This document shows, piece by piece, positions 8,715 to 9,529 of a stretch of DNA of 14,094 bases (the first letter of the stretch is position 1; each line of letters starts with the position of its first letter). This DNA comes from a virus (Duplodnaviria > Heunggongvirae > Uroviricota > Caudoviricetes). Below the pieces are notes generated by a model. It was not told the DNA's origin, ran no database searches, and saw only the letters and a list, made by a program, of their open reading frames with translations. The stretch spans positions 1-14,094 of the IMG/VR virus record IMGVR_UViG_2565956714_000002; one strand, given 5' to 3'. Position numbers and translations under genes: made by a program.

Positions 8715-9529
8715 GTATGGAGCTGATGGTTAAAGCGATGAAAATTCGAGTGGGTAATCCATTGCGAAAACTGGTTCTGATCAAGCTGGCTGATAATGCC
8801 AGCGATCAGGGTGAGTGCTGGCCCAGCTACCAGCATATTGCTGACCAGTGCGAGATTAGCAAACGTTCTGTGATGAATCATATTGCGGCCCTTTGTGAGT
8901 CCGGGCTGGTAAAAAAAGTCACCCGGAAAGGTGAAAAAGGTAACTCAAGTAATATCTATCTCCTTCATCTGGATGGTGCAGGAGATTCACTAGGGGGTAG
9001 AGCAAATAATTCACTATCTGGTGCAGCAAATTCACCATGTAGTGCAGGAGTTGCACTAGGGGGTAGTGCAGGAGATTCACCCAGAACCAGTCACTCTTTT
9101 GAACCAGTCAAAGAACCAGTCAATGAACCAATAGCTGTTGGTGCATCAGCTGATGAGTCCGTGCGAGTTCGTTCAAACCGACCGGAATACTCTCCGGAGT
9201 TTGAGCAGGCATGGCTGGTATATCCCAAACGTGCTGGTGGCAATTCAAAATCTGCAGCCTTCAAAGCCTGGAAAGCCCGTTTGAATGAGGGGGTAAACCC
9301 CGAAACCATGCTGGAAGGTGTGAAACGCTACGCGGGCTGGGTATCTGCGATGGGTAACAGCGGCACACAATTTGTGAAACAGGCTGTCACGTTCTTTGGC
9401 CCGGATCGTCATTTCGAAGAACCCTGGGAAGTTCCTGCGGTATCTGCAGCCAGACGCGAGGACCCGTACTTCAAAGCCAGTTACGACAACGTGGACTACA
9501 GCCAGATCCCGGCAGGATTCAGGGGGTGA
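8711..9529 (+). CDS. Phage replication initiator-like protein with N-terminal HTH domain and origin iterons in its linker, 272 aa
   Basis: Start set at ATG 8711 with GGAGG 6 nt upstream (MSMELMVKAMKIRVGNPLRKLVLIKLADNASDQGECWPSYQHIADQCEISKRSVMNHIAALCESGLVKK, a winged-helix typical of phage replication initiators). The low-complexity linker is encoded by DNA direct repeats, as in lambda O. The C-terminal region is conserved-looking (FEQAWLVYPKRAGGNSKSAAFKAWKARL). Confidence 0.7.
   Translation: MSMELMVKAMKIRVGNPLRKLVLIKLADNASDQGECWPSYQHIADQCEISKRSVMNHIAALCESGLVKKVTRKGEKGNSSNIYLLHLDGAGDSLGGRANNSLSGAANSPCSAGVALGGSAGDSPRTSHSFEPVKEPVNEPIAVGASADESVRVRSNRPEYSPEFEQAWLVYPKRAGGNSKSAAFKAWKARLNEGVNPETMLEGVKRYAGWVSAMGNSGTQFVKQAVTFFGPDRHFEEPWEVPAVSAARREDPYFKASYDNVDYSQIPAGFRG
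8977..9123. repeat. Iteron-like direct repeats (candidate phage replication origin)
   Basis: TGCAGGAGATTCAC occurs at 8977 and 9067. Variants occur at 9001 (AGCAAATAATTCAC), 9022 (TGCAGCAAATTCAC) and 9043 (TGCAGGAGTTGCAC). TAGGGGGTAG occurs at 8991 and 9057. GAACCAGTCA occurs three times in 9084-9122. Spacing is 21-24 bp. Confidence 0.55.

Follow-up and report, generated by a model that had tools for sequence, protein, structure and literature searches.

A probable replication origin inside the initiator gene of a lambdoid prophage, composed of phased dyad repeats and a conserved block

The DNA analysed here is a stretch of 14,094 nucleotides (positions 1 to 14,094 of IMG/VR virus record IMGVR_UViG_2565956714_000002, Caudoviricetes), which we refer to in its full length as the window. 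It contains an open reading frame (ORF) for a 272-residue replication initiator, and the middle of this ORF carries five dyad-symmetric repeats followed directly by a 47-bp block that is conserved among homologous genes. We consider it likely that these 156 bp (8974–9129) are the replication origin of a lambdoid prophage, located inside its own initiator gene, and the best reading of the five repeats is that they are predicted initiator-binding sites (iterons) in a lambda-like layout. The features of the gene are as follows.

8711–9529, +: replication initiator gene, 272 residues (PHROG 270, Pfam HTH_36)
8711–8965, +: N-terminal winged-helix DNA-binding domain, residues 1–85 (AlphaFold2; predicted local distance difference test, pLDDT, 74–89)
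8861–8902, +: predicted recognition helix, residues 51–64, KRSVMNHIAALCES (AlphaFold2 model and table of homologue helices and iterons)
8974–8992: predicted iteron 1, TGGTGCAGGAGATTCACTA, with core GTGCAGGAGATTCAC at 8976–8990
8998–9016: predicted iteron 2, TAGAGCAAATAATTCACTA, with core GAGCAAATAATTCAC at 9000–9014
9019–9037: predicted iteron 3, TGGTGCAGCAAATTCACCA, with core GTGCAGCAAATTCAC at 9021–9035
9040–9058: predicted iteron 4, TAGTGCAGGAGTTGCACTA, with core GTGCAGGAGTTGCAC at 9042–9056, a perfect GTGCA-N5-TGCAC dyad
9064–9082: predicted iteron 5, TAGTGCAGGAGATTCACCC, with core GTGCAGGAGATTCAC at 9066–9080, abutting the conserved block
9083–9129, +: conserved block, 47 bp, AGAACCAGTCAC-TCTTTT-GAACCAGTCAAA-GAACCAGTCAAT-GAACC, directly after iteron 5
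9194–9352, +: small helical C-terminal domain, residues 162–214 (AlphaFold2, three helices, pLDDT 60–81)

The initiator gene and the repeats within it

The five repeats start at 8976, 9000, 9021, 9042 and 9066, with a start-to-start spacing of 24/21/21/24 bp, and their unit is a 15-bp dyad, GTGCA-N5-TGCAC/TTCAC. A preliminary description, made from the sequence without database searches, had listed at least five units of roughly 14 bp at 21–24-bp spacing. Five copies at such spacings are indeed present, but the unit is the 15-bp dyad, which a logo derived from 302 sites in homologous genes extends to a 19-bp palindrome-like T-R-GTG-M-A-N5-T-K-CAC-Y-A. Since each site extends to 19 bp, the sequence TAGGGGGTAG, noted previously as a flanking element seen twice, is found but is not a separate element; it is formed by the outer flanks of two adjacent 19-mers and a G5 spacer (CACTA-GGGGG-TAGTG). 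Exact copies of CTAGGGGGTAG occur twice in the window, at 8990 and 9056. Tandem Repeats Finder detected fragments of the array only (period 21, 1.9 copies, and period 12, 2.5 copies), which is explained by the alternation of 21- and 24-bp spacings.

With up to three mismatches allowed, the 15-mer has seven matches in the 14-kb window compared with 0.52 expected; none of 200 shuffles reached seven, and the array holds four of the seven. Generic iteron sites outside the array number 9 (5.4 ± 2.2 expected), and there is no second iteron array or cluster elsewhere in the window. Isolated iteron-like sites at 8217, 9683 and other positions were considered and set aside as within chance expectation. 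The iteron-like 15-mer GTGAAGGAGATACAC at 9683–9697 (+), situated in the PerC-like gene downstream of the array (∼600 bp away), recurs unchanged in 20 related viral loci, all of them from near-identical phages.

The block that follows iteron 5 contains three exact copies of GAACCAGTCA, at 9084, 9101 and 9113, exactly as had been described (0.74 expected in the window with at most one mismatch), and a degenerate fourth copy, GAACCAATAG, at 9125. The first copy is read as R-T-S-H, in a frame other than that of the second and third, which are read as E-P-V. Folding of the block and array as single strands gave z-scores of 0.05, 0.38 and −0.70, with no hairpin or single-strand initiation (ssi)-type signal. 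DnaA boxes and IHF sites are not enriched in the window and none lies within 8974–9129, a promoter and terminator scan gave no match within the array or block, and no Rfam family was found in 8700–9530.

The array and block together occupy codons 89–140 of ORF 8711–9529, between the regions encoding the winged helix and the C-terminal helices. The earlier placement of the repeats in the inter-domain linker of an initiator is upheld by the profile matches of the protein and by the predicted disorder of the linker. The PHROG 270 'replication initiation protein' profile matches residues 3–271 (1.1e-86) and Pfam HTH_36 (PF13730) matches residues 17–67 (1.8e-11, 44.1 bits, cut-off 25). Over its full length the initiator is 98–99% identical to SfV orf39, and equally so to genes annotated for a 'replication protein' in cdtI, mEp460, Ayreon and several Stx2 phages, and it is 98.2% identical to its counterpart in Stx2a_WGPS2, the Eru6 reference phage. 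SfV, mEp460, Ayreon and cdtI are viable phages that carry a near-identical initiator gene. Of 5426 complete E. coli genomes, 2718 have a match to the gene, which is in many cases partial, and 897 contain at least 80% of it.

The AlphaFold2 model of the N-terminal domain consists of helices at residues 3–11, 17–28, 40–47 and 51–64 and a beta-hairpin of two wing strands (67–73 and 79–85). The linker, residues 91–157, is predicted to be disordered (pLDDT 30–47), and the overall confidence of the model is low (pLDDT 59.6). Foldseek searches with the model returned generic winged-helix matches only; these include DnaD-N (2v79) and RepA N-terminal domains (4pql, 4pt7) and are weak (E 0.012–0.035). 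Pfam DnaD_N (PF21984) scored 24.3 bits, which is under its 27-bit cut-off. The C-terminal domain, presumed to be the partner-recruiting module, had no match in the Foldseek fold search, and an NCBIfam search of the initiator gave nothing above cut-off and no match of any kind in this domain. PHROG 1701 'DnaD-like helicase loader' and PHROG 9327 'primosomal protein' match residues 147–249. A sequence search of solved structures retrieved a keratinase as its sole match, which was rejected as a spurious, low-complexity hit.

Homologous genes: layout, recognition helix and block

Homologues were collected by tblastn against phage genomes (ten loci, L001–L010) and by a degenerate-pattern scan of one genome per species (80 loci, L012–L091), the latter from Pseudomonas, Aeromonas, Shewanella, Marinomonas, Xenorhabdus, Providencia, Aliivibrio, Erwinia and others. 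IMG/VR was scanned separately with the DNA pattern of the block alone, which identified at least 120 contigs. A common layout is present in ∼85 homologous genes from Gammaproteobacteria: winged-helix coding sequence, 3–8 phased dyad repeats, and the block. The array has a period of 21–24 bp, starts at about nt 260–290 of the gene and ends 2–3 nt before the block. The preliminary description would have been contradicted by homologous genes without the repeats, and this was not the outcome: chains of at least three phased repeats were found in 79 of 85 homologue test regions versus 4 of 1947 control windows (200 nt each, taken from the flanks of the same loci). GTGNA-N5-TNCAC sites occur at 25.3 per kb within the array but at 0.29 per kb in the remainder of the genes. 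The contigs retrieved from IMG/VR by the block alone have the same organization. All 110 that extend far enough upstream carry the KLADNA motif of the initiator N-terminus, in frame and 240–345 nt upstream. In each of them a dyad 15-mer lies against the block, and 99 of the 110 contain a chain of at least three repeats.

A 43%-identical homologue in Stx2_KH16-043 (L004, 3282–3421) has a different type of repeat in the equivalent place, a tandem run of about six 15-bp units (TGAACCTTCAAAATC) that lack dyad symmetry, and this sub-lineage may use a different binding mode.

The sequence of the repeats tracks that of the predicted recognition helix. Helix positions are counted here from S50 of the window protein, and the counts are of sequence types among the ∼85 homologues. 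All 24 helix types with arginine at position 3 (x-K/R-R-S/T...) have GTG...CAC iterons, and all five with serine at this position have iterons of the TGCC, GGCC or GGGC type. Specific pairings include SKSAVRNHI with TGCCA-N5-TGGCA, SRSTVKSHI with GGGCAGGAGCTGCCC, and TRTTAINHI with GTGTA-N5-TACAC. A single asparagine-to-arginine difference at position 7 (N56 of the window protein) accompanies GTGAC-N5-GTCAC iterons in Erwinia/Izhakiella, Vibrio and Aliivibrio. The more distantly related mEp013 and Vibrio phage D79 show this pairing too; the association between helix and iteron recurs on different sequence backgrounds.

The repeats are conserved as DNA while the peptides that they encode are not. 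Owing to spacings such as 23 and 22 bp, the same 15-mer falls in two reading frames and encodes different peptides, and this was the case in 45 of the 65 genes that have at least three generic sites. Linker peptides are wholly different among lineages (GAGDS, VVQEIH, PMPSDGT, STPVPPE), whereas the DNA grammar is constant. The number of iteron units in natural alleles of this initiator ranges from 1 to 9, and the viable phage cdtI contains an exact 66-bp duplication that comprises three iterons, which together argue that the linker peptide is unconstrained.

In 83 of 88 homologous genes the block, with at most two mismatches, comes directly after the last iteron; it has the consensus AGAACCAGTCAC-TCTTTT-GAACCAGTCAA-T-GAACC. 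Its codons are nearly fixed: AGA in 74 of 74 genes (8.7% of arginine codons elsewhere in the same genes), AGT in 75 of 75 (14% elsewhere), TCT in 71 of 71 (11.7%), CCA in 58 of 61 (26%) and GTC in 68 of 70 (29.5%). The mean share of the most frequent codon is 0.99 in the block compared with 0.53 at 27 amino-acid-invariant columns of the N-terminal domain in the same 76 genes, where every synonymous codon is in use. Those changes that do occur in the block are non-synonymous, namely ACC to ATC (T to I), CCA to TCA (P to S) and CAC to AAC (H to N), and in seven loci, five of them intact genes, the block is read in another frame. The two-frame reading of the repeats, their tracking of the recognition helix and the fixed codons of the block thus argue that repeats and block are DNA elements, selected as DNA and not as peptide. 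The preliminary description took the repeats to be bound by the protein encoded there, a prediction with which the co-variation and DNA-level selection agree.

In 74–78 of 80 loci, AT enrichment within the gene peaks in the 40 nt that follow the last iteron (+11.5 points). In two distant relatives without the canonical block, the equivalent place is occupied by other short direct repeats: AACCAGT(C/A)A twice in mEp013 and CCTAACA(G/C)TA twice in D79. From these, and from tandem 14-mers at the same position in P22, the general grammar looks like phased dyads followed by short direct repeats.

Exchange between N- and C-terminal modules also takes place at the block. In alleles P0054 and P0072, foreign N-termini with their own iteron sets are fused to the C-terminus of the window protein exactly at the block, and among the homologues the cassette of N-terminus, iterons and block is joined to at least eight unrelated types of C-terminal domain. 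At least five types of downstream partner combine with this cassette. The gene after the initiator is DnaC/IstB-like in 28 loci, lambda-P in 18 and an uncharacterised Pseudomonas gene in 20; more rarely it encodes a primase-helicase (2 loci) or DnaB (1 locus), or no replication gene follows, as in the window. The C-terminal type of the window protein precedes a DnaC-like gene in Rahnella, Phytobacter and Kosakonia prophages (L029, L034, L045, L055). Since these relatives with the same C-terminal domain encode a DnaC-like protein, we infer that the version lacking a loader uses the DnaC–DnaB of the host.

Two further observations concern the downstream genes. The 20 Pseudomonas prophage loci (within L015–L036) have a distinct C-terminal domain and a conserved downstream protein of 259 residues that has no Pfam match, and which is a candidate for an undescribed helicase-loader analogue. 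In Stx2a_F403 (L005, 3388–5540), the primase/helicase-type 'replication protein' after the initiator contains an apparent intein, with a LAGLIDADG-like LLGDGSL motif and a C-terminal ...VATHNT motif; its ORF runs out of the fetched locus.

The proposed origin and its alternatives

The anatomy of an iteron-type theta origin is present in the window, with phased direct repeats in cis to the initiator gene and beside a candidate unwinding element. We propose that the N-terminal winged-helix domain of the initiator binds each of the five 19-bp dyad iterons, probably as a dimer, with the half-sites one helical turn apart. Since the sites are 21 or 24 bp apart, they would lie on roughly one face of the helix. 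The nucleoprotein complex so formed would destabilise the 47-bp block next to it. This block is conserved, has a relatively high AT content and shows no secondary structure beyond chance as single-stranded DNA, and it is best read as a candidate unwinding or helicase-entry segment. The C-terminal domain of the initiator would then bring the replicative helicase to the block. Since the initiator is not followed by a gene for a loader or helicase, the host DnaB–DnaC pair is the most likely partner, although the lack of a fold match for the C-terminal domain and the low confidence of the model mean that this helicase route is one that we infer. The encoded peptide would serve as a disordered linker that tolerates what the DNA elements dictate.

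Several points weigh against this proposal. The block is only 60% AT, far below the AT-rich stretch of lambda, and the wing-coding DNA at 8931–8970, upstream of the iterons, is richer at 68% AT, which makes the site of melting uncertain. Iteron 2 is degenerate in this prophage, with GAG in place of GTG (cdtI and other relatives carry GTGCAAATAATTCAC, with GTG, at this site). There are alleles with few iterons, such as P0031 (250 residues, 64 contigs) with two units and P0039 (242 residues) with one, and allele P0041 (247 residues) is without the last iterons and the block. The co-variation and codon statistics count related sequences as independent. In addition, it has been stated that there is no knowledge so far about the replication proteins of the Eru6 replication region of Stx phages (PMC8951638), and that the 'O-only' lambdoid modules, which encode an O-like protein but neither a helicase nor a loader, replicate in a way that is not yet understood (PMC12315714).

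The alternative that survives best concerns the block only and supposes that it is not an unwinding element but a homology patch for shuffling N- and C-terminal modules, or a dual-coded stretch whose peptide (RTSHSFEPV) serves to dock a host protein. The P0054 and P0072 recombinants that join exactly at the block, the variety of C-terminal domains and downstream partners found on one cassette, and the modest AT content would all suit a patch. However, third codon positions in the block are fixed from Shewanella to Pseudomonas whereas the flanking conserved residues are synonymously saturated, and the distance of 2–3 nt from the last iteron is fixed, which suggests that the function of the block is coupled to the bound initiator. 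A docking peptide is difficult to reconcile with the frequent T to I, P to S and H to N replacements that occur without synonymous change, and with the loci that read the block in another frame. We therefore regard the patch or peptide as improbable in the place of an unwinding element, although it is not exclusive of the proposed origin, and the roles of the block as an unwinding segment and as a homology patch for module exchange are mutually compatible.

Plasmid iterons serve both initiation and copy control. The repeats in the window could likewise be initiator sites that act mainly in control, as an autoregulatory roadblock in the initiator's own transcript or through titration or handcuffing, with the origin elsewhere in the prophage. 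In accord with this, cloned lambda iterons inhibit replication in trans (PMC3349717), and the placement of the start site here comes from anatomy. On the other hand, sites outside the array are close to chance expectation and the 14-kb window holds no second array, the strict juxtaposition with an AT-enriched block conserved at the DNA level suits an origin and is not needed by a pure operator, and the homologous layout in lambda and P22 is an origin. A mainly regulatory array is accordingly given little credence. Finally, that the repeats are the DNA image of a low-complexity Gly/Ser/Ala/Pro linker, expanded by slippage and devoid of DNA function, would fit a compositionally simple, disordered peptide and a unit number that differs among alleles as slippage predicts, but is very improbable given repeats that are dyad-symmetric and helically phased, encode different peptides in two frames in 45 of 65 genes, track the recognition helix and keep their architecture while the linker peptides differ by lineage.

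A bolder extension of the proposed origin is that the GAACCAGTCA block (35–47 bp) is a portable, sequence-specific helicase-entry or unwinding element of a very large family of Gammaproteobacteria initiators. Its recognition, perhaps in single-stranded form, would fall to the invariant N-terminal residues of the initiator (approximately the first 47) or to a conserved host factor, and it would work whatever the iteron specificity and whichever loader is used. We put this forward tentatively and consider it rather unlikely, but if true it would explain the replication of 'O-only' lambdoid phages, such as that of the window, that lack a loader gene of their own.

Prophage setting and known systems

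The window covers the early region of a lambdoid prophage of the SfV/cdtI/mEp460 ('Eru6') type. The following features surround the initiator gene.

1369–1441, +: tRNA gene (72 bits), adjoining the probable integrase
1459–2622, −: probable integrase, ORF of 387 residues
6092–6766, −: S24-type cI repressor
7089–7652, +: CII(CP76)-like gene
7649–8485, +: Ash-family gene, ORF of 278 residues, followed by a small ORF and then the initiator ORF
9526–10020: PerC-family regulator gene, yfdN homologue, whose start overlaps the initiator stop codon
9987–10673: phage Dam methyltransferase gene, overlapping the PerC-family gene

A cro-like gene accompanies the cI repressor in the immunity region, and the order of genes after the initiator is PerC-like, Dam, LexA-like and RusA (+). 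No helicase, loader or primase gene lies downstream of the initiator anywhere in the window, and the initiator is the sole recognisable replication gene of the early-right operon. The tRNA gene beside the 387-residue minus-strand ORF is a likely marker of the attachment site and of one prophage end. Within the Ash-family ORF there are plus-strand Rfam matches to isrK (8009–8085, 63 bits) and to C4 antisense RNA (8110–8197, 82 bits). This pair, positioned between the cII-like gene and the replication gene, resembles the P1/P7-type c4-ant (Gifsy-1 isrK/anrP-like) antirepressor control module.

The replication module of the window is shared by Shiga-toxin phages (Stx2a/2c/2k), cdt phages and serotype-converting phages (SfV), among others, and a match to the initiator gene, if only a partial one, is found in about half of complete E. 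coli genomes. A 156-bp candidate origin for the O-only/Eru6 module, with its parts defined to the base, makes the question of its replication directly testable. The readable code from recognition helix to iteron, for example N56R with GTGCA to GTGAC, gives precise predictions, to which the conservation of the block at the DNA level adds more. Typing of the replication specificity of prophages, and hence of their incompatibility, also becomes practical from sequence only.

Ori-lambda comprises four 18-bp iterons and a 38-bp AT-rich stretch inside gene O (PMC3349717). The candidate origin resembles it in its position inside the initiator gene, between the sequences encoding the DNA-binding and partner-binding domains, in its 4–5 dyad-symmetric iterons of ∼18–19 bp at ∼20–24-bp spacing, and, less clearly, in a relatively AT-enriched segment directly 3′ of the iterons (PMC3349717). 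As in lambda, it is transcribed in the early-right operon downstream of cII, and the N-terminal domain and iterons would form one specificity unit with exchangeable C-termini. The parallel with lambda drawn in the preliminary description therefore applies to the layout (domain, phased dyads and AT-richer segment) and does not extend to the proteins. Unlike lambda O, the initiator belongs to HTH_36 and does not match PF04492 (Phage_rep_O), and it is not followed by a gene for a P-type loader or a helicase. A further difference from ori-lambda is that the iterons precede a sequence-conserved GAACCAGTCA block of only 60% AT and not a generic AT tract.

P22 offers a second parallel, its origin being annotated in gene 18 (rep_origin, NC_002371 32840–32984). 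Four dyad iterons of the TTTACC-N4-GGTAAA type, with a period of 20–24, lie inside this initiator gene (PMC8022706), and are followed by an AT-rich stretch that holds two tandem 14-mers; the order of phased dyads and then short direct repeats is shared with the window. Unlike the window, P22 has the DnaB-type helicase gene 12 next door, and its AT tract is followed by a palindrome, whereas no palindrome was seen after the block in the window. P22 gp18 was rejected as a close homologue (BLASTP E 0.5, hhalign probability 5.9%); it scores 6.9e-38 on PF04492 and is thus a protein of the lambda-O family that serves as an architectural comparison only.

In RepA_N plasmid initiators (such as staphylococcal pSK41/pTZ2162 RepA), whose origin likewise lies within their own gene, and in SPP1 G38P/oriL, a DnaD-like N-terminal winged helix binds iterons located mid-gene and a host-specific C-terminal domain recruits the replisome. 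The window gene also encodes a winged-helix initiator, with predicted internal iterons, and the fold matches to DnaD-N and RepA are weak and generic for winged helices (E 0.01–0.04). In contrast to the window, the hosts of RepA_N elements and SPP1 are Gram-positive, and their iteron and block sequences are unrelated.

The window, with its single O-like gene, is itself a member of the 'O-only' (Genome Res 2025, PMC12315714) and Eru6 (BMC Genomics 2022, PMC8951638) modules. The word 'iteron' is absent from PMC8951638, and full-text literature searches, whose coverage did not include the SfV genome paper (J Bacteriol 2002), returned no description of iterons for this initiator family; hence the origin arrangement appears to be undescribed for it. 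Both PMC12315714 and PMC8951638 classify gene content and describe no origin, to which the anatomy reported here is additional. An origin inside an initiator gene is a classical and expected concept, and what appears to be new is its anatomy for this family.

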